Of a stretch of 64,000 nucleotides of DNA, positions 6,810-43,300 are shown one piece after another; the stretch's first letter is position 1; the number at the start of each line of letters is the position of its first letter. The stretch lies in NCBI GenBank assembly GCA_026395055.1, contig JAPLZK010000003.1, forward strand, positions 99,855-163,854, written 5' to 3'. Made by a program: the position numbers and the translations under genes. The stretch comes from Candidatus Uhrbacteria bacterium. GTDB lineage: Bacteria > Patescibacteriota > Patescibacteriia > UBA9934 > GWF2-40-263. Below the pieces are notes generated by a model that did no database searches, had not been told where the DNA came from, and saw only the letters and a program-made list of their open reading frames with translations.

Positions 6810-9116
6810 ATGTCCACCAAAAAAACAGTCGCGATTCGCGGCATGCATTGTGCAAGCTGCTCTCTTACGATTGAACGCGCACTCAAAAAAATGGAAGGGG
6901 TTGAATCAGCAGAGGTAAGTTATGGCACAGAAAAAGCCAAGATTGTTTTTGATGAATTGAAGGTGGATATTGCAAAGATGTCCAAAGTTATTGATCCACT
7001 TGGTTACACGCTCGTTGAAGAACAACCAGCTGCCGCGTCTATGAACATGTCTGCGGAATCCATGGGGATGTCGGAGAGTGAACATGCAGCGCATCTTGGA
7101 TTGAATCAAACCAAAAAAGAAAAGCTTGCAGAGCTTCATCAAATGAAGGTCATGTTGTTTTCTGTCATTCCACTTGCGATTGTTAGCCTCTTTCTCATGG
7201 GTTGGGATCTTTTTGCGCAATTGAAACTTGTTGCGGAGATGTCTTATGCAACAAAAGAATTCTTTCATCATCTGATGCCACTTTTTGCTACGTACACACT
7301 GTTCGTAGTTGGAAAGCCCTATCTTCTCGGATTATATCGATTTATCCGATATGGCAAGGCAAACATGGACACGCTTATTGGAATGGGAACGCTCGCGGCA
7401 TTTATTTATAGTTTTGTCGTGACGGCATTTGAAGAACAGTTGCGTCCATTTTTGAATGTGGATGTGACGTATTACGATGTAACGATTGTTGTAATCGCAT
7501 TCATTGCTCTCGGGAAGTATCTCGAGGTTCGATCTAAGTTGAAGACGGGAGATGCGATTGAGGCGTTGCTGACATTACAGGCAAAGACCGCGCTTGTTGT
7601 TCGAGATGGAATGGAAATGGAGCTTCCGCTCGACCAAGTTGTTCACGGAGATATTCTTATTGTAAAACCCGCAGGAAAGATTCCTGTCGACGGCATCGTT
7701 CTTGAGGGAGCATCGTACGTGGATGAGGCAATGATCACGGGAGAACCGATTCCTGTTTCGAAATCTGTAAACGATCGCGTGATTGCGGGAACGATGAACA
7801 CAACCGGATCAGTTACCATGCGCGCCACAAAGATTGGTGCAGAGACCATGCTCGCGAGAATTATCCAAATGGTAGAGGACGCGCAGGGAAGTAAGGCGCC
7901 TATTCAAGCGCTTGCCGACAAGATCTCTGGTGTGTTTGTTCCGATTGTTCTTGTGATTGCATTTGTCTCGCTCGGTCTTTGGCTTATCCTCGGCACGCGT
8001 GCAATTGGATTCTCACAAGCTCTGTCGATCGGCCTTACGTGTTTTGTAGGTGTGCTTGTCATTGCTTGTCCGTGTGCGCTCGGTCTTGCGACACCAACAG
8101 CAATCATTGTTGGTGTTGGCAAAGGTGCACGCGAAGGAATTCTGATTAAGGATGCTGCTACACTCGAGAAACTGCACCAAGTGAATGTGGTTGTGGTCGA
8201 TAAGACCGGAACGATTACAAAAGGAAAACCTGAGGTTGTTGGAGGAACATCTGATCACGATCATCTTTCAATTCTCGCATCTCTCGAATCAAAGTCTGAG
8301 CATCCTATCGCGACCGCAATCATTGCGCATGCGAAGGCGAACAACATTGGTGTTCAAGCTGTGACGGACTTCGAAGTCATAAAGGGGAAAGGACTTCGTG
8401 GACAGATTGTGGGAAAAGAATATTTTGCTGGGAATACAAAGCTGATGGAAGATTTGAAGTTGCTTCTCGAACGACAATTGATCGAAGCAGCAACGCTCGA
8501 GGGAAAGACGCCCGTTATTCTCGCGACACGTTCCGAGATTCTCGGAATCGTTTACGTTGCGGATGCGATTAAGCCTGAAGCGATTGAAGCCGTTCGTGCA
8601 CTGCACAAACGTGGAATCAAGGTTGTTATGCTCACGGGTGATCATCACAACACCGCACAGTTTATTGCAACACAAGCGGGCATTGATGATGTTGTGTCTG
8701 AAGTTATGCCAGCTGATAAACTTGTGAAGATCAAAGAATTGCAATCACTAGGGAACGTTGTCGCCATGGCGGGCGATGGAATCAATGATGCTCCCGCACT
8801 CGCACAAGCAGATGTCGGGATCGCGATGGGAACGGGAACCGATGTTGCGATCGAATCATCGGGAATCACATTGCTCGGCGGCGACCTCTCGAAGCTTGTG
8901 AAAGCCATTCGTCTTTCCGAGATCACGATGCGAGGAATCAAACAGAATTTATTCTGGGCATTCTTTTATAACATTGTTGGCATCCCACTTGCGGCCGGAT
9001 TATTCTACCCATTCTTCGGATTATTACTGAACCCAATTTTTGCAGGTGCAGCAATGGCATTCTCGAGCGTGAGTGTTGTAGGAAACTCCCTTCGACTAAA
9101 AACAAAAAAACTTTAG
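6810..9116 (+). CDS. copA: copper-translocating P1B-type ATPase
   Basis: N-terminal HMA GMHCASC, TM CPC motif (IACPCALGLATP), DKTGTIT phosphorylation site, GDGINDAP. Confidence 0.9.
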   Translation: MSTKKTVAIRGMHCASCSLTIERALKKMEGVESAEVSYGTEKAKIVFDELKVDIAKMSKVIDPLGYTLVEEQPAAASMNMSAESMGMSESEHAAHLGLNQTKKEKLAELHQMKVMLFSVIPLAIVSLFLMGWDLFAQLKLVAEMSYATKEFFHHLMPLFATYTLFVVGKPYLLGLYRFIRYGKANMDTLIGMGTLAAFIYSFVVTAFEEQLRPFLNVDVTYYDVTIVVIAFIALGKYLEVRSKLKTGDAIEALLTLQAKTALVVRDGMEMELPLDQVVHGDILIVKPAGKIPVDGIVLEGASYVDEAMITGEPIPVSKSVNDRVIAGTMNTTGSVTMRATKIGAETMLARIIQMVEDAQGSKAPIQALADKISGVFVPIVLVIAFVSLGLWLILGTRAIGFSQALSIGLTCFVGVLVIACPCALGLATPTAIIVGVGKGAREGILIKDAATLEKLHQVNVVVVDKTGTITKGKPEVVGGTSDHDHLSILASLESKSEHPIATAIIAHAKANNIGVQAVTDFEVIKGKGLRGQIVGKEYFAGNTKLMEDLKLLLERQLIEAATLEGKTPVILATRSEILGIVYVADAIKPEAIEAVRALHKRGIKVVMLTGDHHNTAQFIATQAGIDDVVSEVMPADKLVKIKELQSLGNVVAMAGDGINDAPALAQADVGIAMGTGTDVAIESSGITLLGGDLSKLVKAIRLSEITMRGIKQNLFWAFFYNIVGIPLAAGLFYPFFGLLLNPIFAGAAMAFSSVSVVGNSLRLKTKKL

Positions 9117-9120
9117 AAAC

Positions 9121-9142
9121 AAAAAACCGCATGAGGATGCGG
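9121..9142 (-). terminator. intrinsic terminator for minus-strand gene 9148..9639 (hairpin also follows copA)
   Basis: CCGCAT-GAGG-ATGCGG hairpin with A6 on + side (T-run on minus strand). Confidence 0.45.
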
Positions 9143-9147
9143 ACAGA

Positions 9148-9639
9148 TCAGTGCATGTCTTGCTCCAGAGAGGAGAAGTTCATGAGTTCTGGTTGAAGAA
9201 AGTTCGTAGCGTAGAAGGTGATACAGAAATCATTGGGACGATTCCTGTTTTTGTGATGCGTTGAGACAACAATTGTTAACTGTTGGTTCCACGCGTCTTC
9301 AAGTTCTCGCATGTATGCTTTCAAGCTCGTGAATCGTCCTTGTCCGAATCGTTTTCGAATCATGTACGGCTCTACGAAAACCCGGTTCCCTAAACCTTGC
9401 AAGGTGTTGTCGACGACGTGTGAAAGAAACGGAGGGAGTTGCCACCAATAGTTTGGTCCATCAAATTCAAGCCAGTTCTGAGAACGGGCGAATCGAACGA
9501 GATGTGGTGGCATGGCGAGAAGAAGATCTCGAGCCAGGTTTTCCCAAAGCCGTCTGTCAAAACCGTTGCGTTCACGATAGGTTGCGTCTGTCTCAAGGAG
9601 CGAAAAGGTGCGTTCAAGTGGTCGCGTTGCAAGGAACAT
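9148..9639 (-). CDS. hypothetical protein
   Basis: ORF 9148..10257 trimmed to Met207 so that it does not overlap the ABC-F gene; no recognised domain. Confidence 0.3.
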   Translation of the reverse strand: MFLATRPLERTFSLLETDATYRERNGFDRRLWENLARDLLLAMPPHLVRFARSQNWLEFDGPNYWWQLPPFLSHVVDNTLQGLGNRVFVEPYMIRKRFGQGRFTSLKAYMRELEDAWNQQLTIVVSTHHKNRNRPNDFCITFYATNFLQPELMNFSSLEQDMH

Positions 9640-9705
9640 GAGAACCCCCAAAGCGAGTGTGTCTGTATCGTAAGAACATTCGATTGATTCGTCAATGAAA
9701 AAAGA

Positions 9706-11535
9706 TTGCGGTATGATGTCGCAACAAAACCTATGGCTGTTCCGCTCCTCGAGGTGAACCACCTCAACAAATCTTACGGAAAACAAATCGTCGTAAAAGA
9801 CGTCTCTTTTGTGGTAACAGAAGGCCAAAAGATCGCTCTGATTGGACGAAACGGTTCTGGGAAGACAACGCTCATGAATATGCTTACGGGCGCAGAAGAG
9901 CGAGATTCTGGTGATTTCAAAGTATTCGATCGTACACGCGTCGGCGTTATCCGTCAGCATGAAGTGTTGCCAAGCGACGTCTCGGTCGCGATGTTTCTTG
10001 AACAACGAACCGGCAAGCCTGTTTGGACGATCGCGAAACTTGCATCCGAGTTCGGATTGCACACGGATCATCTCGAGAAAACAGCAGCGCAACTCTCGGG
10101 TGGTTATCAAATGCGTGTGAAGATTGTGGCCATGCTTCTTGAAGAACCAAACCTGCTTCTTCTCGACGAACCAGTGAACTATCTCGACTTGAATACGTTG
10201 CTTCTCCTCGAGCACTTCTTGAAATCGTATAAAGGAAGTTTCATTCTCGTCGCTCACGACCGCGAGTTCCTTGAAAACACCTGTACAACAACGTTCGAGC
10301 TAGAACGTGGCGAACTTACAACATACTCGGGGACGGTCGAGAATTATTTGGTGTTCAAGGAAGAGCAGCGGGAATATGCGCTCAGAACAAACAAGAAGCT
10401 TGCGCGCGAGATTGAACATCACCAAGAGTTCGTTGATCGATTTGGTGCGAAAGCAACAATGGCGTCACGCGCACAAAGCAAATCAAAGCACATTGCAAAA
10501 CTGCGAAAGAAAATTGCGGGTGTACATGCAGATCTTGCAACAACAAAGATTAAAATTTCTTGCCCAATGGTTCCGCCAGGAACGGCTGTGTATGCAGAGG
10601 AGGTTTCGGTTGGATATGGCGAGAAAGTGATCGTCGACAAAATCAATTTCCACATCAATCGTGGAGACAAGGTTGTGATTGCCGGAGAGAACGGTCAGGG
10701 AAAGACGACATTGTTGAAGACGCTCGCAGGAATTCTCGAGCCGCTTTCGGGAAAGTTAAAGTGGTGGCATCACGCGGACATTGGTTACTACGATCAGAAA
10801 GTAGACGCGACATTAATCGCAAACGAGACGGTCTTGAATTACTTGATGCGCATGGCGCCGCATATCTCGAGCGGCGAACGCATTCTCATGATGGCGGGAA
10901 ACTTTTTGTTTCGCGATGACGATCTCGAAAAGCCTACGAGCGTATTATCGGGAGGCGAACGTGCACGATTGTGTCTCGCGGGTATTTTGCTCCACGAACA
11001 TTCCGTGCTGCTTCTCGATGAGCCTACAAACCATTTAGATGTTGAAACGGCCGAAGCTCTTGCGATCGCTCTGAAACACTATGAAGGAACCGTCATCTTT
11101 GTTTCTCACGCTCGTACGTTCGTAAACGCGCTTTGCGATAAGGTTCTCGAAATCCGATTCGGTACGCTCAGAAACTATCCTGGACCGTATGAGGAGTATG
11201 TAGCGGATCTGGCTGAGTTGATGGCGATGGAAGCGGGTGACTCAAGAACCCCCTCCTTCGTCAAGGAGGGGGCAGGGGGTGGTCGTGCGCAGGAACGTAT
11301 CGAGAAGGCGGAGGCTCGCGCAAAGCTCAAAGAACTCCAGCGTGCTGTCGAGCGTCTCGAAAAGCTCATGAAAGTCCTGGACCGTGAGCGCAGTGAGATT
11401 CTCCAGTTCTATTTCGACAATCCAACCGAGTACGCGCCAGAAAAGGCAACGCGCCTTGGTGAACTTGATGAAGAGTACAAACAAAAAGAAGATGAGTGGT
11501 TCAAATTACAGGAACAGATTGAGGGGTTGTCATAA
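9706..11535 (+). CDS. ABC-F family ATPase (two ABC domains, C-terminal coiled coil)
   Basis: two Walker A (GRNGSGKTT, GENGQGKTT), two LSGG signatures, no TM domain; alternative start Met10 at 9733. Confidence 0.85.
   Translation: MRYDVATKPMAVPLLEVNHLNKSYGKQIVVKDVSFVVTEGQKIALIGRNGSGKTTLMNMLTGAEERDSGDFKVFDRTRVGVIRQHEVLPSDVSVAMFLEQRTGKPVWTIAKLASEFGLHTDHLEKTAAQLSGGYQMRVKIVAMLLEEPNLLLLDEPVNYLDLNTLLLLEHFLKSYKGSFILVAHDREFLENTCTTTFELERGELTTYSGTVENYLVFKEEQREYALRTNKKLAREIEHHQEFVDRFGAKATMASRAQSKSKHIAKLRKKIAGVHADLATTKIKISCPMVPPGTAVYAEEVSVGYGEKVIVDKINFHINRGDKVVIAGENGQGKTTLLKTLAGILEPLSGKLKWWHHADIGYYDQKVDATLIANETVLNYLMRMAPHISSGERILMMAGNFLFRDDDLEKPTSVLSGGERARLCLAGILLHEHSVLLLDEPTNHLDVETAEALAIALKHYEGTVIFVSHARTFVNALCDKVLEIRFGTLRNYPGPYEEYVADLAELMAMEAGDSRTPSFVKEGAGGGRAQERIEKAEARAKLKELQRAVERLEKLMKVLDRERSEILQFYFDNPTEYAPEKATRLGELDEEYKQKEDEWFKLQEQIEGLS
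11249..11272. repeat. GC-rich palindromic element CCCCCTCCTT-CGTC-AAGGAGGGGG, in frame inside ABC-F CDS
   Basis: perfect 10-bp inverted arms; encodes ...PSFVKEGAGGG...; near-identical copy at 34286. Confidence 0.5.
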
Positions 11536-13918: not shown

Positions 13919-15364
13919 ATGCGCTTCCTTCATCCTTCTGACGCAGAAAAAGAGCTGACGTATCAAGATGTCTTTCTCATGCCGCAATATTCGGATGTTG
14001 TTTCGCGCATGAACGTCGATCTTTCACCACAGGACGGAACGGGAATGACATTACCGATCATTGTTTCGAACATGACGGCGGTTGCAGGAAAGCGTATGTC
14101 TGAAGCGGTGACGCGCAGAGGTGGACTTGTAGTGCTTACACAGGATATGTCGCTTGAGCGTATTGAGGAGATTGTAAAGGCAACCAAAGTTTGCCATCCT
14201 GTTTTTGAAACGCCGATTGTTCTCGACGAACAGGAGTCTGTGCAAACCGCACTCAACTTGATTAACAAACGCGCTCATCGCGCGGTGATTATTGTTGATA
14301 AACAAAATAAGCCTGTAGGAATTTTTACGGAAAAGGACGCGTATCGCCGCGATCGCTATAATCGATTGGTGGATGCGATGACGCGTGATCTGATTACCGT
14401 GCCAAGTTCCATGTCCCCAAAAGAAATTTTTAAAACCTTACATGATCGCAGGCTTTCAATCGTTCCAGTAGTGAATCTCGACGGAAGTCTCGCGGGAGTC
14501 ATGACAAAGAAAGGGTGCGTTCGTGCCGTGCAATACAAACCCGCTTTGAACGCAAGTGGTCACTTGCTTACAGCTGTGGCAGTTCGAATTAGATCAGGTC
14601 TCGACGAAACACTTGATCGACTCAATCAGATTGGCGTAGATATGATCGTTCTCGACACAGCACACGGACATCAGAAGATGATGATTGATGCGGTAAAGAA
14701 GGCTCGATCACTGGTCGGTTCTTCAAAACCTATTATGGCCGGCAATATCGTTGGCGAAGCAGCGGCAAAGGATTTGATTGATGCGGGTGCAACACATTTA
14801 AAAGTGGGAGTTGGCCCGGGGGGTGCGTGTAAAACACGTATGACCACCGGAGTTGGACGTCCACAGTTCTCGGCGGTGTCCGAAGTAGCAAAGTATGCGC
14901 GTGCACATGGTGCATATGTTTGCGCAGACGGTGGCGTAAAGCATCCTCGTGATGTTGCGCTCGCACTTGCGGCCGGCGCACACTCGGTCATGATCGGAAC
15001 TTGGTTCGCGGGAACGTACGAGAGTCCAGCCGATGTTCAGTTCGACGAGAGCGGAAGAATGTATAAAGAACAATTCGGAATGGCATCTCGACGAGCTGTA
15101 ACAAATCGCACTGAGAATACGGATCCATTTGAACAGGCGCAAAAAGAATTTTTTGAAGAAGGAGTGAGTCAGACTCGGATGTATTTGAATCTCGGTCAGG
15201 AAAGCGTTGAAGATATTATCGACGAGATTACTGCGGGAGTTCGCAGTGCATGCACCTACTCGGGCGCGCGTACGCTCGATGAGTTTCACGACAAAGCAAT
15301 CATTGGAGTGCAGACCGCGTCAGGGTATGAAGAAGGGAAGCCGGTAACAAAAAGCTGGACGTAA
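13919..15364 (+). CDS. guaB: IMP dehydrogenase family protein with CBS pair
   Basis: TIM-barrel motifs, CBS domains, catalytic-loop GVGPGGACKTR, GGVKHPRDVALALAAGA. Confidence 0.75.
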   Translation: MRFLHPSDAEKELTYQDVFLMPQYSDVVSRMNVDLSPQDGTGMTLPIIVSNMTAVAGKRMSEAVTRRGGLVVLTQDMSLERIEEIVKATKVCHPVFETPIVLDEQESVQTALNLINKRAHRAVIIVDKQNKPVGIFTEKDAYRRDRYNRLVDAMTRDLITVPSSMSPKEIFKTLHDRRLSIVPVVNLDGSLAGVMTKKGCVRAVQYKPALNASGHLLTAVAVRIRSGLDETLDRLNQIGVDMIVLDTAHGHQKMMIDAVKKARSLVGSSKPIMAGNIVGEAAAKDLIDAGATHLKVGVGPGGACKTRMTTGVGRPQFSAVSEVAKYARAHGAYVCADGGVKHPRDVALALAAGAHSVMIGTWFAGTYESPADVQFDESGRMYKEQFGMASRRAVTNRTENTDPFEQAQKEFFEEGVSQTRMYLNLGQESVEDIIDEITAGVRSACTYSGARTLDEFHDKAIIGVQTASGYEEGKPVTKSWT

Positions 15365-15379
15365 TGTCCAGCTTTTTTG
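15353..15379 (+). terminator. intrinsic terminator of guaB (stop codon in loop)
   Basis: AGCTGGAC-GTAAT-GTCCAGCT followed by TTTTTTG. Confidence 0.55.
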
Positions 15380-15381
15380 TT

Positions 15382-15403
15382 CCACTCCTTCACAAGGAGT
15401 GGG
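15382..15403. repeat. palindromic element CCACTCCTT-CACA-AGGAGTGG, intergenic relative of the CTCCTT-N4-AAGGAG family
   Basis: 9-bp perfect arms, same core as elements at 11249 and 34286. Confidence 0.4.
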
Positions 15404-15419
15404 TTAGGAGGTGGTCGCA

Positions 15420-15932
15420 TCACTTCACCTCGAGAATCGTATAAATCAATTCGTCTCCATGCGTCACAACCGAAATCGTTTCGCCGGCTGTGTGGCCAAT
15501 GAGGTGCGAGCCGAGTGGGGAGAGGTGTGAGATTCTTCCGCGCACCGGGTTTGCCTCTTGTGGCCCCACGATCTCAAACGTAAGTGTGTGATCATTCATG
15601 TTCAGCACAACCGTTGATCCGAGTTGAATACGATCTTTATCGTTTTCATCTTTTTCAATCACGACAACGTTTTTCAATTTCTCTTTAATGATGGTCATGC
15701 GCGACGCCAGGTTGCGCATGCGGTGTTTTGCTTCTTGATATTCGGCATTTTCCGAAAAGTCCCCGAGTTCACCCGTTGTCTGTGTGTCTTTTACCGCCTG
15801 TTTGTGTTGAATTTCAAAATCAATCAACTGATGGTTGAGTTTCTCAAGTCCAGCTTTTGTGAGGTAAACAGGCCCGTCATCGCCCTTAAGCTGATTGTTA
15901 TCGAGTTCTTTTTGTCGGGTTGGGAGACGCAT
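15420..15932 (-). CDS. greA: transcription elongation factor GreA
   Basis: GDFSENAEY motif, C-terminal FKBP-like ISHLSPLGSHLIGHTAGE. Confidence 0.85.
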   Translation of the reverse strand: MRLPTRQKELDNNQLKGDDGPVYLTKAGLEKLNHQLIDFEIQHKQAVKDTQTTGELGDFSENAEYQEAKHRMRNLASRMTIIKEKLKNVVVIEKDENDKDRIQLGSTVVLNMNDHTLTFEIVGPQEANPVRGRISHLSPLGSHLIGHTAGETISVVTHGDELIYTILEVK

Positions 15933-34173: not shown

Positions 34174-35145
34174 ATGCGAAACAAACGACCATTTCCAAAA
34201 ATTCCTGTGCTTTTGTGCCTGGTCGTCATTGCCGTGGTCGTTTTTCAGTATCGAGCCTATCGTTTGCCGTACGACCACCCCCTAACCCCCTCCTTGATGA
34301 AGGAGGGGGGAGTAGATCTGGTTTCCGGAATGCTGCTTCCAGACTCTGTTCCCGCCATTGATCATCCAAAATTTGAATCAACATCGGTTGCAGATCAATA
34401 TTTGAACAACGACGGGCTTGGAATCTCTGTTGAATCAAATGGAGCCTCACGATTTTATCCGTATCAGATTCTTGTCTGGCATCATGTTGTGAACGATGTT
34501 ATCTCTGGACAGCCTCTTCTTGTTTCATACAATCCGTTTGCGATGAGTGGGGCTGTGTATCAACGAACAACCCAAGGAACGGTTCTTGATTTCGGACTTT
34601 CTGATAAACTCGCAAACAGCAATCTTTTGTTGTATGATCGCGCCACGCATTCGCTTTGGGATCCGATGACGCATTCTGCGATCGATGGTGAGAAAAAAGG
34701 AACAGTGCTCGCGCGATATCCATCGACCGTGATGTTGTGGAATACGTACAAAACAGTTCATCCAGATGGTCAGGTCCTTTCTCGAGACACGGGCTTCTCG
34801 CGTGATTATACACACGACCCTTACGGAGATTATGTTTACAGCGAAAAAATTCTTTTTCCCGTAACACATAAAGACGATCGTCTCGCGTCAAAGGTTCTTG
34901 TGTACGGGATTGAATGGAATCAGAAACAGAAAGCGTATCCAATCATGCTTCTTGAGAAACAAAACACAGTCCGTGATTCGATTGACGGAGCGAATATATC
35001 CGTTGAGTATGATGCAAAGTCGCATGTTGTCCACGCTTATCAGCTCGACGCAAGTGGAAATCACCAAAACGAAATTCCCGTGACCGAATCATTTTGGTTT
35101 GCGTGGGTGGCAGGGTTTCCAAACACAGACCTTTATCATTCCTAA
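34174..35145 (+). CDS. DUF3179 family protein
   Basis: N-terminal TM, conserved ...SRFYPYQILVWHHVVND..., LLLYDRATHSLW, FWFAWVAGFPNTDLY pattern. Confidence 0.6.
   Translation: MRNKRPFPKIPVLLCLVVIAVVVFQYRAYRLPYDHPLTPSLMKEGGVDLVSGMLLPDSVPAIDHPKFESTSVADQYLNNDGLGISVESNGASRFYPYQILVWHHVVNDVISGQPLLVSYNPFAMSGAVYQRTTQGTVLDFGLSDKLANSNLLLYDRATHSLWDPMTHSAIDGEKKGTVLARYPSTVMLWNTYKTVHPDGQVLSRDTGFSRDYTHDPYGDYVYSEKILFPVTHKDDRLASKVLVYGIEWNQKQKAYPIMLLEKQNTVRDSIDGANISVEYDAKSHVVHAYQLDASGNHQNEIPVTESFWFAWVAGFPNTDLYHS
34286..34309. repeat. GC-rich palindromic element CCCCCTCCTT-GATG-AAGGAGGGGG, in frame inside DUF3179 CDS
   Basis: perfect 10-bp arms identical to copy at 11249; encodes ...PLTPSLMKEGGVD...; preceded by CCACCCCCTAACCCC tract. 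Confidence 0.5.
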
Positions 35146-39867: not shown

Positions 39868-41397
39868 ATGAGTCGTTTGAGCAAATTGCTTGCGGATCTT
39901 GGCATGAACATTCCGATCGTTGATGAAACGACGGGTACGAGTTCGAATACGGGCACGGCGCTTGCCATGCCACAGAAGAACGCTGCCGCAAAGCGCGTCA
40001 TTGACGAAGGGGTCGACATGGCCTCAATAGTATACGCGGACCTCCCTCCGGAGGTGGCGCGTAGCCGCATGCGCGAACGTCTCGTCGAAGTCGGCGAAAT
40101 GGTGATCTTCCCAATCGACTTCACTGCGGGTGTTGTGGAGAAGGAAGATGGTAGCCCGGATCTGAAGATCTATGCCACCATGAACATTCCGGGCGTTGGG
40201 CACGTGGAAGTGCAGCCGCTCATCACGCTTGGCGTGAATTACATCGGTCAGACGAAGGAAGGCAAGTTCCGGACGTTGCAAACGTTCCAGTGCTTGGTCT
40301 TCCGGCCGAGGTTCGTGGATCCGAAGAAGCCGAAGGAAAATCCGTACAAGGCGTTTCCGATCAACTTCCTCAGTCCGAGTGTCCTCGACACCTGGAATTT
40401 CATTGCGACCCAGATGCCGAGCCTGAATTGGCCAACGATTGATCACATTCCGAATACTCTCCGCAAGGCGGGAACGCGGACGCTCACGTTTGCGCCACGG
40501 TGTCTGAAGACGTTGTCGTTCACGAATGACAAGCGTGTGAAGCGCAAGGGTCAGTGGGTGAATGAGCCTGTGACGGATTCGTTCCGGATCGTGGGTTACC
40601 TCTTTGGCCAGATGCTGAAGTTGCACGCGTTGTCGGATGAACCGGTCACTCCCGCGCTCGACGCAGATGGAAAGCAGCGTGAGAACAAGGAAGGCTATCA
40701 GCTGGTCGAGCTCGATCGGCGGGAATACGTCTGGAGCGTGAAGCTTGGCGAAGGTTCGCTCGAGTTGTCGCTCATTGATCTCGCGGAGAACTACAAGGGT
40801 GACGCGCGCGTTCCGATCGTGGAAGTGCGCAATGAAATGGATCCGTTCGCGGTCCTTGGCACGACGCCGCTCAAGATGGACATCAATACGGTTGGTGATC
40901 TCACGCGTGCGTGGGTCATGCGTGTGTACGATGAAACGAATCCGCTGTACGTGTATGCACGTGACGCGGGTCTCGTGAACATTCAGGACTCGCAGGAGAC
41001 CATGCGGCCGATCATCGAAGATCTCGGCCGTACGGCTGTGGAAAAGGGAATTGAGGATATGAAGGCGACCTACGCCGAAGTTACCTCGCGTCTCTCGACC
41101 GCATCGGACAAGCCGAGTATTGAGGAAGTGTTGAATGGGCGCCTGCTCAAGGCGATCCTGTTTCGCATGAACAAGGACGATGCTGCGGCTACGTGGATTG
41201 ATTCCAAGATCGAAGGCAGCTTTGATCCGAAGAGTCCGTTCCACATGGCAGTACGTCGGTACGTGATCGAGATGATCGCGACGAAAGCGAATTACAAGGA
41301 TCCGGAGCCGAAGAAGCCCGAAGCTCCGAAACCTCCTGTGGTCGAAGCGGCAGTTCTGCCTCCTACGACCGAGAACGCGGCGACTCCGCCTGCGTAA
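39868..41397 (+). CDS. large conserved hypothetical protein P1 (paralog of 41519..43300)
   Basis: 509 aa; shared blocks with P2 (QCLVF...KAFP, NPLY, QTM..I.EDL, FDPKSP); Pro-rich C-terminal tail; no enzymatic motif recognised. Confidence 0.55.
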   Translation: MSRLSKLLADLGMNIPIVDETTGTSSNTGTALAMPQKNAAAKRVIDEGVDMASIVYADLPPEVARSRMRERLVEVGEMVIFPIDFTAGVVEKEDGSPDLKIYATMNIPGVGHVEVQPLITLGVNYIGQTKEGKFRTLQTFQCLVFRPRFVDPKKPKENPYKAFPINFLSPSVLDTWNFIATQMPSLNWPTIDHIPNTLRKAGTRTLTFAPRCLKTLSFTNDKRVKRKGQWVNEPVTDSFRIVGYLFGQMLKLHALSDEPVTPALDADGKQRENKEGYQLVELDRREYVWSVKLGEGSLELSLIDLAENYKGDARVPIVEVRNEMDPFAVLGTTPLKMDINTVGDLTRAWVMRVYDETNPLYVYARDAGLVNIQDSQETMRPIIEDLGRTAVEKGIEDMKATYAEVTSRLSTASDKPSIEEVLNGRLLKAILFRMNKDDAAATWIDSKIEGSFDPKSPFHMAVRRYVIEMIATKANYKDPEPKKPEAPKPPVVEAAVLPPTTENAATPPA

Positions 41398-41408
41398 GCA
41401 CATCTCTT

Positions 41409-41434
41409 ACTGATCCTAACCAGGTCAGTTTTTT
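41409..41434 (+). terminator. intrinsic terminator of P1
   Basis: CTGATCCT..AGGTCAG hairpin followed by TTTTTTGTTTTG. Confidence 0.45.
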
Positions 41435-41486
41435 GTTTTGTTCGACAACATCTTTTGAAGCCTCGGTGAAGAAGGATACAAACAAA

Positions 41487-41511
41487 GAAAAAACCGATCA
41501 AGTTGATCGGT
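41487..41511 (-). terminator. intrinsic terminator of P2 (minus strand)
   Basis: ACCGATCA-AGT-TGATCGGT preceded by A6 on + side. Confidence 0.45.
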
Positions 41512-41518
41512 TCGAGCG

Positions 41519-43300
41519 TTATTGTTTGTCTGTCCTGTATGCAACTTTGTATTCACCTCTATTCAGGATGGATCCGTGGTTCACACGCATGGGTGGGCCC
41601 GGATCATCCTCTCCTGCGGGTGGAATGACGCCATTCATTCCTGTCGGATCCCAAACGGTTGGATCAACGAATGGCAGTTCTTCATCGACGATGAGATCGA
41701 CGGTCGTCGCTTCTGCTTCGATGAACTCTTCGAGGTCATCGTCGCCCAAAATGATTTCTTCGTCGGCTGTATGCGGAACCGCTGTAGGTTTTGGCATTGG
41801 GACAAATGCATCGCTTGCGCGAAACGCCGGAGAACTTGATTCGCGATGACTCACGGGAAGTGAGGAGATCGGAATCTGTTTTGGAACGGGGGTGAGCTCT
41901 GGAATCAGGATGCTGACTTGAGAGATTTCTGGAATGGGTGGCGGTGTTACTCGTCCATACGAATTGATGAGCCATGAACGCAAGTGCATGAGCAGCGGAC
42001 TTTTTGGATCAAAGGGCATGTCGAGGACACGACTGATCCAAAGAGACGCAGCGTCTTCTGGTTGATTCATGCGCAGTGCGGCAACACGAATGTCTCTTCC
42101 GCCGAGCATGGCTTCTGCTGTTGGCTTATTTGGCGCAATCGTGAGCATGCGAATCATTTGAACAGAGGCTGCGGAGATTTGCAGTTTGATCTGTTTGATC
42201 GCGTCGAGCATCAGATCTTCAAGGATGGCATGCATGGTCTGCTGCGGATCACTCGGAAAGATCAGTTTCATTTCGATACCCGCAAGATACAACGGGTTTC
42301 GATGATCGAACGCTCGATTGAGATAGCCTCGCGCCGTTTGATCGATCGTTTTCCAATCAACCTTGAGCGGCGAGGTGTTGAGAACGGCGTATGGGTTGAT
42401 TGCGTCATGTACATCAAGAACGGCAAGACGCTGGTCTATTTTGACTTTGCCCTCTGGACCAAGCCAAAACACTTCAAGTGGACCTTCATTCAGTTTCACG
42501 CGGAAGATGTGTTTTGAAACGAATCGTTTTTCTCCATCCACGTCATCCGGTTCCGGAATTTGTGATTTGGAAGAGAGAAACAGCTTTTGTCCAAAGCGTG
42601 TTCCAATCAAGAGGCGTTTGCGAGATCCTCGTTCACGCTTGAACAATGGATCAAACGTTGGAATGAATTCAACAACGCGAACGCCGGGGCGCATCAAATT
42701 GTTGCGGATCACTTCAATGAGTGGCCAAAGCTCGTCTTTGTTTTTCGTAACGGCATTGCGACGTTTTGCAACGTCGTTCCAAACGTGAATTGTGCTTGGA
42801 TCCGCAAGTCCGAGCGGGAACGCTTTGAATGGCCCGGTCTTTGTGTTCGATTTGAAGACAAGACACTGGATGGAACCACCGCTTGTGTATTTCCCATTTT
42901 CGATCGCAATCAAATATTCGGGTCCGACATAGATGAGCGGAACGATTTCTTGTTCCGCGTCATAGCCGGGAAGGGTCGCTTTCGCGAATACGTGAACGTC
43001 CCCATTCGGTTGTTCACGACCTTCGAAGATGAGATTGGCAATATGTGCTCGACCATTCAATTCTCGCACAAGGCGTGCGCGCATGTCTGATCGTGCAGCT
43101 TCACGATTCGGATTTGGATCCACGAGTGCGGCGCGATTGATCGCGTCTGCGATCAATCGATTCGCTCCCGGAACACTGTCTGGGATCGCGGGAAGGTAAG
43201 CGCTTTTTCGGCCAGACAATTCTGGACTGATTTCCTGCACGTGCGGGATCGAAAGCCCGAGTTCGAGCAGGGTGACAGCGCTCAGCTGCGTCTCATCCAT
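41519..43300 (-). CDS. large conserved hypothetical protein P2 (paralog of P1) with long Pro/acidic C-terminal tail
   Basis: 593 aa; ~25% identity to P1 over ~450 aa; convergent orientation. Confidence 0.55.
   Translation of the reverse strand: MDETQLSAVTLLELGLSIPHVQEISPELSGRKSAYLPAIPDSVPGANRLIADAINRAALVDPNPNREAARSDMRARLVRELNGRAHIANLIFEGREQPNGDVHVFAKATLPGYDAEQEIVPLIYVGPEYLIAIENGKYTSGGSIQCLVFKSNTKTGPFKAFPLGLADPSTIHVWNDVAKRRNAVTKNKDELWPLIEVIRNNLMRPGVRVVEFIPTFDPLFKRERGSRKRLLIGTRFGQKLFLSSKSQIPEPDDVDGEKRFVSKHIFRVKLNEGPLEVFWLGPEGKVKIDQRLAVLDVHDAINPYAVLNTSPLKVDWKTIDQTARGYLNRAFDHRNPLYLAGIEMKLIFPSDPQQTMHAILEDLMLDAIKQIKLQISAASVQMIRMLTIAPNKPTAEAMLGGRDIRVAALRMNQPEDAASLWISRVLDMPFDPKSPLLMHLRSWLINSYGRVTPPPIPEISQVSILIPELTPVPKQIPISSLPVSHRESSSPAFRASDAFVPMPKPTAVPHTADEEIILGDDDLEEFIEAEATTVDLIVDEELPFVDPTVWDPTGMNGVIPPAGEDDPGPPMRVNHGSILNRGEYKVAYRTDKQ

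Follow-up and report, generated by a model that had tools for sequence, protein, structure and literature searches.

We report that a palindrome embedded in the coding sequence of an ABC-F family ATPase of a Candidatus Uhrbacteria bacterium is probably the Watson-Crick hairpin of a larger, oriented unit of about 36 nt, which belongs to the BoxC/PIT/TM class of intrastrand-triplex repeats, is dispersed and constrained in its structure, and turns over among related genomes. The stretch of DNA analysed (contig JAPLZK010000003.1, positions 99,855 to 163,854; hereafter the window, meaning the whole 64 kb) holds three copies, counting the intergenic one at 15382 because it shares the hairpin-plus-tail layout (Table 1). 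As part of this interpretation, we regard the unit as selfish, or at least non-coding, DNA whose copies appear, disappear, invert and are homogenised within short spans of evolution.

A preliminary description of this DNA had noted a 24-nt palindrome, CCCCCTCCTT-CGTC-AAGGAGGGGG, with perfect 10-bp arms and a 4-nt loop (11249-11272), in frame in the ABC-F linker after the second ABC domain, a near-identical element with the loop GATG in frame in a DUF3179 gene (34286-34309), and a related intergenic palindrome at 15382. We recover all three, with the frame of the ABC-F gene intact and the third belonging to the same family, although its arms are of 9 bp and its loop is CAC (3 nt). The palindrome is, however, only a part of the element: each window copy runs 2-4 nt past the hairpin into a tail of the form GG(G/A)GGTGGTC, so that copy 2 reads hairpin-TTA-GGGGGTGGTC on the minus strand. 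This tail reverses the order of the purine arm, retaining G and answering A with T or A, a mirror rule that is obeyed at 9 of the 10 tail positions in copies 1 and 2. The first copy is translated as ...GDSRTPSFVKEGAGGGRAQE... at about residues 515-526 of the ABC-F protein (the whole unit being read as TPSFVKEGAGGGR), in the stretch that separates the second ABC domain from the C-terminal coiled-coil segment, and the second as DHPLTPSLMKEGG, directly after the N-terminal hydrophobic segment of the DUF3179 protein. Copy 3 is placed between the terminator-like hairpin of an IMPDH gene and the stop codon of greA, and its stem still pairs by way of a double change, C to A and G to T.

Table 1. Parts of the three repeat copies, their host genes and the genes flanking the intergenic copy, in window coordinates
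Feature	Position	Strand	Remarks
Copy 1, complete class II triplex-type unit	11249..11284	+	in frame in ABC-F
Copy 1, pyrimidine arm CCCCCTCCTT	11249-11258	+	
Copy 1, loop CGTC	11259-11262	+	
Copy 1, purine arm AAGGAGGGGG	11263-11272	+	
Copy 1, linker CA	11273-11274	+	
Copy 1, mirror tail GGGGGTGGTC	11275-11284	+	
Copy 2, complete unit	34273..34309	-	in frame in DUF3179
Copy 2, tail complement, plus strand GACCACCCCC	34273-34282		then linker TAA
Copy 2, hairpin CCCCCTCCTT-GATG-AAGGAGGGGG	34286-34309		read on plus strand
Copy 3, variant, partly degenerate unit	15382..15416	+	intergenic
Copy 3, hairpin CCACTCCTT-CAC-AAGGAGTGG	15382-15402	+	9-bp arms, 3-nt loop
Copy 3, linker GTTA, then tail GGAGGTGGTC	within 15382..15416	+	
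Host gene 1, ABC-F family ATPase, 609 aa	9706..11535	+	Pfam ABC_tran x2 plus ABC_tran_Xtn
Host gene 2, DUF3179 protein	34174..35145	+	Pfam
IMPDH-like gene, left neighbour of copy 3	13919..15364	+	Pfam match of L120 ortholog
Terminator-like hairpin of IMPDH gene	15349-15377		
GreA-like gene, right neighbour of copy 3, convergent	15420..15932	-	Pfam match of L120 ortholog

The window palindromes are beyond chance expectation. In 100 dinucleotide-preserving shuffles of the window, neither CTCCTT-N4-AAGGAG nor, with as many as 3 mismatches allowed, the complete 20-base pattern was matched once, and 5 shuffles yielded no hairpin-plus-tail unit, as against the 3 of the 64-kb window. The fixed bases of the motif are free of stop codons in every reading frame, with only a loop ending in T creating a TAA in one of them, and the peptides encoded by its frames are rich in Pro, Ser, Lys, Glu and Gly.

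The closest relatives of these units are the class II intrastrand triplex motifs of Holder et al. (2015, NAR; PMC4666352), comprising TMECO and the earlier BoxC and PIT elements, on which prior work by Bachellier and by Hoyne and Maher is cited there. TMECO, 5'-CCCTCNCCC-N3-6-GGGNGAGGG-N3-GGGNGAGGG, has 3,610 occurrences in 262 proteobacterial genomes, and its isolated strand forms a stable triplex by circular dichroism and nuclear magnetic resonance (PMC4666352). Like these repeats, the window units present on one strand a C-rich arm, a loop of 3-6 nt, a G-rich purine arm, a linker of about 3 nt (often TTA in the window family and in TMECO alike) and a mirroring G-rich segment; they are class II purine motifs of about 35 nt, multi-copy, single or in inverted pairs, and, like TMECO, they show local indels between close relatives. 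The definition of the class calls for a stem of 6-15 nt, tolerating a single mismatch, and for loops of 1-6 nt before and after the purine arm. Copies 1 and 2 combine a homopurine 3' arm and a 4-nt loop with a third strand of the class II type, reached through the linkers CA and TTA, respectively; copy 3 lacks such a third strand. In contrast to TMECO, which is always intergenic in K-12 and has no transposase or integrase remnants nearby (PMC4666352), two of the three window copies are coding and translated and the host belongs to the Patescibacteria (Uhrbacteria), an affiliation to which the names of its homologs also point. Moreover, the window consensus, CCCCCTCCTT-N4-AAGGAGGGGG-N2-3-GGGGGTGGT, does not match that of TMECO. 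Judged by their sequence, the window units are hence class II intrastrand triplex repeats of a family of their own, and not TMECO itself; the class now extends to the Patescibacteria, and translated copies are unusual in it.

The search for further palindromes suggested by the preliminary description bore fruit: a scan for the 20 fixed bases, with one genome per species, recovered the exact hairpin in at least 119 genome loci of many phyla; simple arithmetic predicts about one chance match in 596 Gb. Among the matches listed are Patescibacteria, Terriglobia, Ignavibacteria, Bacteroidota, Desulfuromonadales, Erythrobacter, Leptospira and others. Although the loci were thus chosen by the exact hairpin and the tail was absent from the query, the tail accompanies 111 of the 128 genome copies among the matches listed; most hairpins have the consensus GGGGGTGGT 2-3 nt away on one flank, which reads ACCACCCCC in the opposite orientation. 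When the register is set on G positions only, an A or a T stands opposite the two internal A residues of the arm in 93% and 99%, respectively, of these 111 tailed copies. About 80% of the 128 copies lie outside long open reading frames (ORFs), in either orientation; therefore the family is mainly intergenic. We also observed the exact hairpin plus tails on two IMG/VR viral contigs (L204 144-167 and L205 9104-9127), arranged as ACCACCCCC-TAA-hairpin...GGGGGAGGT and as hairpin-TTA-GGGGTGGTT. A phage origin was considered and rejected, the exact hairpin being found on just these two viral contigs, as was a special tie to ABC-F genes, since a tblastn search of the 119 loci with the ABC-F protein returned only one terminator case and one upstream case.

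Arm and tail covary. This was observed among the hairpins of metagenomic loci containing genes of the DUF559 family, discussed below (L124-L203, the best 80 of 589 confirmed, with 81 DUF559 genes), where mirror tails match 40 different purine arms, for instance AAGGAAGGAGA/AGAGGATGGTT (11/11) and AAAGGGGAGGGGA/AGGGGTGGGGTTT (13/13), along with AAGGAGAGGG/GGGTGTGGTT, AAGGAAGGGG/GGGGATGGTT and AAAGGGGAGGGG/GGGGTGGGGTTT. In these loci the mean agreement with the mirror rule is 0.687, versus 0.618 +/- 0.005 when tails are exchanged between elements; with a fixed linker, agreement is highest at 3 nt, and a direct-repeat relation of purine arm and tail, also considered, agrees less well than the mirror relation. 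The mirror rule corresponds to the purine-motif triplex code, in which the third strand runs opposite in direction to the purine strand and the triads are G·G-C, T·A-T and A·A-T. A full-text search of the literature with the arm and tail strings returned eukaryotic primer and gene matches only.

Comparison of ABC-F orthologs indicates that the unit is held constant at the level of DNA. The 95%-identical ortholog of L120 carries the copy 1 element at the same place, with 32 of 32 nt of arms, linker and tail unchanged and all 4 loop bases changed, CGTC (window 11259-11262) versus TATA (L120 4191-4194), which suggests a loop-specific mutation, replacement by conversion or an independent insertion. 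Between the two genes, four-fold sites differ at 134 of 261 positions (51%) outside the element and at 0 of 8 within its structure-forming parts, namely the arms, the tail and the linker (for the 10 degenerate sites, P is about 0.003). With synonymous sites frozen inside and 51% diverged outside, something must therefore act on the DNA itself, be it selection on structure, gene conversion from other copies, or re-insertion. The 85%-identical ortholog of L123 has no element, and those of L121, L207 and L208 (78%, 64% and 65% identity, respectively) bear triplex-type units in the same linker in the opposite orientation, with arm and tail covarying here too (AAGGAGGGG/GGGGAGGTT, AAGAGGGGG/GGGGGAGT). 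Such units have therefore either occupied this linker for long or settled in it repeatedly; with such motifs in orthologs down to 64% identity, three of them reversed, the ABC-F copy is not a recent insertion. Immediately upstream of the L208 ortholog (8357-9819) we observed a pair of genes resembling a diversity-generating retroelement, bAvd and an RVT_1 reverse transcriptase.

These comparisons effectively refute the proposal of an accidental palindrome in an ordinary linker or in the codons of a peptide motif (PSxxKEG) that is under selection as protein. Both coding copies indeed read P-S-(F/L)-x-K-E-G in the same frame across the hairpin, and some DUF559 ORFs read through the motif in that frame too. 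However, the identical DNA occurs between genes and in both orientations, its synonymous positions are frozen amid the four-fold divergence of 51%, and zero matches are expected by chance. The check on orthologs that had been suggested for telling an insertion from an ordinary linker points the same way, as the orthologs have differing peptides at the ABC-F linker (EPPPTPPSKGGGS, APSWKEGEV) and all of these are encoded by hairpin-plus-mirror-tail DNA.

An element acting in mRNA, whose hairpin, with the Shine-Dalgarno (SD)-like AAGGAGG and GGGGGUGG, would pause ribosomes or stabilise the ABC-F and DUF3179 transcripts, appears quite improbable to us. It could draw on the resemblance of the arms to SD and anti-SD sequences, on the potential of the tail GGGGGUGGUC to pair with the 3' end of 16S rRNA by G-U wobbles, on the conservation of synonymous sites within the unit, and on the RNA folding of the region (-26 to -31 kcal/mol, z about -2 to -2.6). 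Yet copy 2 is antisense to DUF3179, whose mRNA therefore carries the C-rich complement; copy 3 follows a terminator-like hairpin in the space between two convergent genes; ABC-F orthologs have the motif in the opposite orientation; and the genome copies are, as noted, mostly outside long ORFs and in either orientation. Furthermore, the mirror rule of the tail has no explanation in RNA pairing, and the purine-motif triplex is reported not to form in RNA (PMC4666352). The SD-like core emphasised in the preliminary description is better seen as a by-product of the polypurine arm, given copies in both orientations and between convergent genes. A hairpin sequestering SD and anti-SD, or a mimic of 16S rRNA, was rejected because of the two orientations, the site between convergent genes and the lack of start codons downstream. 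Nor did Rfam yield a relevant structured RNA: no family (tRNA, rRNA, riboswitch or other) reached the gathering score over the whole 64-kb window, and at E <= 1 in eight loci the repeats gave only weak chance microRNA- or snoRNA-like matches far below that score, which two tRNAs elsewhere in those loci did reach. An intrinsic terminator was likewise discarded, as a G-run and not a T-run follows the hairpin, two copies lie inside ORFs, and a separate terminator-like hairpin precedes copy 3.

The copies come and go among close relatives. L120 lacks the 45 nt (about 15377-15421) that contain copy 3, with no duplicated target at this indel, while copy 2 is lacking in all 15 DUF3179 orthologs aligned (53-89% identity), 36 nt being replaced by 51 nt in the comparison with the closest, L122. 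Conversely, the copper ATPase of L121 has an extra in-frame unit (SVLPLLSKERD), directly after its DKTGT...PEVV segment, that is missing from the window and L120. Translated copies are therefore recurrent in the clade, which fits a compact genome with little intergenic space. IMPDH and greA are adjacent in the window and L120 and split in L121, and the spot is therefore variable in several ways; the genes between them in L121 (13981-14283) code for a small HNH endonuclease and a PNP_UDP_1 protein. Thus, of the earlier proposal of a mobile or recombinogenic mini-element that tolerates translation, we retain a dispersed repeat that is translated and whose copies come and go, but replace the 24-nt palindrome with an oriented unit of about 36 nt.

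The most suggestive feature of the neighborhoods lies outside the window, in the recurrence of DUF559 genes, which code for a family with the Vsr-like PD-(D/E)xK nuclease fold. In L060 and L026 a 115-aa DUF559 gene (PF04480, E = 2e-31) sits between two copies of the window motif, and the motif is 11-65 nt from such a gene in L060, L026, L066, L095 and L012, on both sides in several. When 833 ORFs within 300 nt of the copies listed were clustered, DUF559 was the sole family recurring across unrelated taxa; the remaining clusters came from related genomes or consisted of the translated repeat itself, and no transposase family was among the 12 largest. In the metagenomic loci, triplex-type units, found with a detector whose thresholds are arbitrary, reach 2.45 per kb in the 200 nt next to the 81 DUF559 genes versus 0.156 per kb elsewhere, a 16-fold difference. 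Of 62 DUF559 genes scored under strict criteria, 32 are flanked by a unit, 18 of them on both sides. The usual layout is an inverted pair, with upstream units mostly oriented as the gene and downstream units mostly opposed. This association is not mentioned in the description of TMECO (PMC4666352), and we found no paper linking DUF559 or YcjD, its E. coli representative, to triplex repeats in a literature search whose coverage of subscription journals was thin, so that a prior description is possible. A composite repeat of about 170 nt in the Terriglobia metagenome-assembled genome JBGOVH01 (L022, L027, L040, L068, L096, L102, L105, L108) resembles a DUF559 cassette without the gene, hairpin-tail ... 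tail'-hairpin. Its hairpins, CCCCCTCCTT... and CCCCCCTT-GTCT-AAGGGGGG, have their tails facing each other and are enclosed by outer inverted segments, TGAAAATGACGT / ACGATTATTTTCA, which on paper look like a four-way junction.

In E. coli the same two partners are found together. The DUF559 gene of K-12, ycjD, ends in a degenerate motif, and an intact TMECO lies about 165 nt downstream of its stop codon. Across complete E. coli genomes, ycjD is present in 3,378 of 5,426 (62%), and a genome has between 1 and 29 TMECO-like places. When 60 chromosomes were sampled at even spacing, the median number of such places was 18 (range 11-27) in the 37 with ycjD, compared with 5 (range 1-18) in the 23 without it (Mann-Whitney p = 2e-9, by a test that ignores phylogeny); all sampled genomes with fewer than 10 copies are without ycjD. 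Separately, we observed that the region 3' of ycjD (L206 4200-4420; NC_000913.3 about 1351200-1351420) contains a duplicate of about 40 nt of the 3' end of the gene, ggagacggtgctggagaatattc...ctgaaccg. Both copies of this end precede a degenerate triplex-type motif, with the intact TMECO after them, and the region looks like the scar of a cassette duplication or conversion.

With these findings, the units may be compared with other known repeats. In outline they resemble the REP/REPIN repeats with the REP-associated tyrosine transposases (RAYTs): short GC-rich palindromes in many copies, one small nuclease-type gene between inverted repeats and, in the E. coli comparison, a repeat number that tracks the gene. 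Nonetheless, a classical REP or REPIN moved by a RAYT of the Y1 type, or a miniature inverted-repeat transposable element (MITE) moved by a DDE transposase, is very improbable, even though the units are short, GC-rich, palindromic, dispersed and at times in inverted pairs. The gene that recurs beside them is that of a DUF559 Vsr-like nuclease and not of an HUH/Y1 transposase, the largest neighbor clusters hold no transposase, the conserved feature is a mirror tail and not a GTAG-type head, and the 45-nt indel shows no combination of terminal inverted repeats and target duplication. A MITE was rejected specifically on the lack of target duplication at that indel relative to L120 and on the replacement seen at the DUF3179 and ATPase sites. 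The Rickettsia palindromic elements (RPEs), which the preliminary description had offered as the known example, are likewise palindromic repeats that sit in frame in protein genes, where the added peptide is tolerated. With a length of about 100-150 bp, they are not known outside Rickettsia. The window unit, in contrast, is 36 nt (45 nt as an indel), is spread over many phyla and is mostly outside genes, and the RPEs are not known to have a mirror G/T tail or sequence similarity to it. The nearest kin of the unit are the BoxC/PIT/TM repeats described above. H-DNA shares with the units the purine-motif triads and the mirror relation of purine tract and third strand. Unlike H-DNA, which is formed by a homopurine-homopyrimidine mirror repeat in a duplex, the units have all three segments on one strand, and as their third strand has T opposite A, the duplex of the window unit is no homopurine mirror repeat.

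We propose the following mechanism. Wherever DNA is transiently single-stranded, as in the lagging-strand template, the transcription bubble or repair intermediates, the G-rich strand would fold into the hairpin, and the tail would pack against the purine arm in antiparallel orientation to form triads of the types G·G-C and either T·A-T or A·A-T; such an intrastrand fold has been demonstrated in vitro for E. coli TMECO only (PMC4666352). In vivo, the triplex might stall polymerases and trigger repair, by which the unit would be deleted, copied or flipped. The DUF559 nuclease might in turn recognize or nick the fold and drive its copying in a manner like that of RAYTs with REPs. This last step, which we derive by analogy, is the weakest of the mechanism and is advanced only tentatively. 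More doubtful still is the general statement that triplex repeats and DUF559 form a REPIN/RAYT-like partnership in many phyla, in which the nuclease would copy, flip and homogenise 36-nt units, even into genes. The unit is probably neutral cargo in its host genes, sited in variable linkers in either orientation and encoding a harmless peptide, and it is because of this siting that some copies survive inside the genes of a gene-dense genome.

The chief alternative, which we consider a serious contender though short of an even chance, is that the motifs are passive structural hot spots without a dedicated enzyme, copied, deleted or flipped by stalling, slippage, template switching, illegitimate recombination and gene conversion. 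DUF559 genes would then be adjacent for other reasons, namely as a cassette inserted at these sites, through use of the motif as a terminator or regulator, or as a host repair nuclease. Consistent with this, TMECO is tied to local instability, its sites being more rearranged than control sites between E. coli strains, and no mobility genes are near it (PMC4666352). The hairpins flanking the DUF559 gene in L060 are direct repeats with the same loop (AGTC), as expected of a duplicated target. On the other hand, passive hot spots leave unexplained the near-identical 30-nt sequences across phyla, the regular bracketing of DUF559 genes by inverted copies, and the finding that no sampled ycjD-positive E. 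coli has fewer than 11 copies.

Several observations, some of which also favor the hot spots, weigh against the reading of the palindrome as part of a structure-constrained triplex repeat with DUF559 as its partner. The TMECO duplex stays B-DNA, and dimethyl sulfate footprinting in E. coli found no triplex in vivo (PMC4666352). When folded as DNA by ViennaRNA, the hairpin gives -11 to -12 kcal/mol, in a program that models Watson-Crick pairs only. The purine arm of copy 3 holds a T and its tail is out of register. The perfect conservation in ABC-F could stem from gene conversion or re-insertion and not from selection; no target-site duplication or defined ends were seen at the sites compared; and the DUF3179 and copper ATPase sites look like replacement and not clean insertion. 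As regards DUF559, the gene is absent from the 64-kb window and from L120-L123, as searched by tblastn and with a hidden Markov model built from the 81 genes; just 5 of the 128 genome copies among the matches listed adjoin such a gene; and 30 of the 62 genes scored with the strict detector have no unit. In E. coli, finally, strains of the O157:H7 type keep 12 copies without ycjD, and the comparison of genomes leaves phylogeny out of account.

Concerning the host genes and the remainder of the window, the alignment of orthologs suggests that the ABC-F gene starts at the ATG at 9733 and not at the listed TTG at 9706. The 40-42 kb bin of the window is richer in GC (54%) than the remainder (about 45%), and two large convergent ORFs at 39868-43300, of 509 aa (+) and 593 aa (-), look like diverged paralogues.

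Our findings add the Patescibacteria, with their minimal genomes, to the hosts of BoxC/PIT/TM repeats, and indicate that copies can live in essential-type genes as translated segments that stay constant at synonymous sites. For genome annotation, this means that repeat DNA, and not a feature of the protein, can underlie Pro/Ser/Gly-rich inserts (PSxxKEGxGGG, for example) in proteins that are otherwise conserved, and that such motifs can seed spurious ORFs. BoxC, PIT and TM have been known for decades and their triplex is well characterised in vitro; how they spread is now approachable through ycjD in E. coli. The link with DUF559, which we infer from loci outside the window, is the most interesting product of this analysis. 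If true, the partnership would give DUF559/YcjD its first function and would explain the spread of BoxC.

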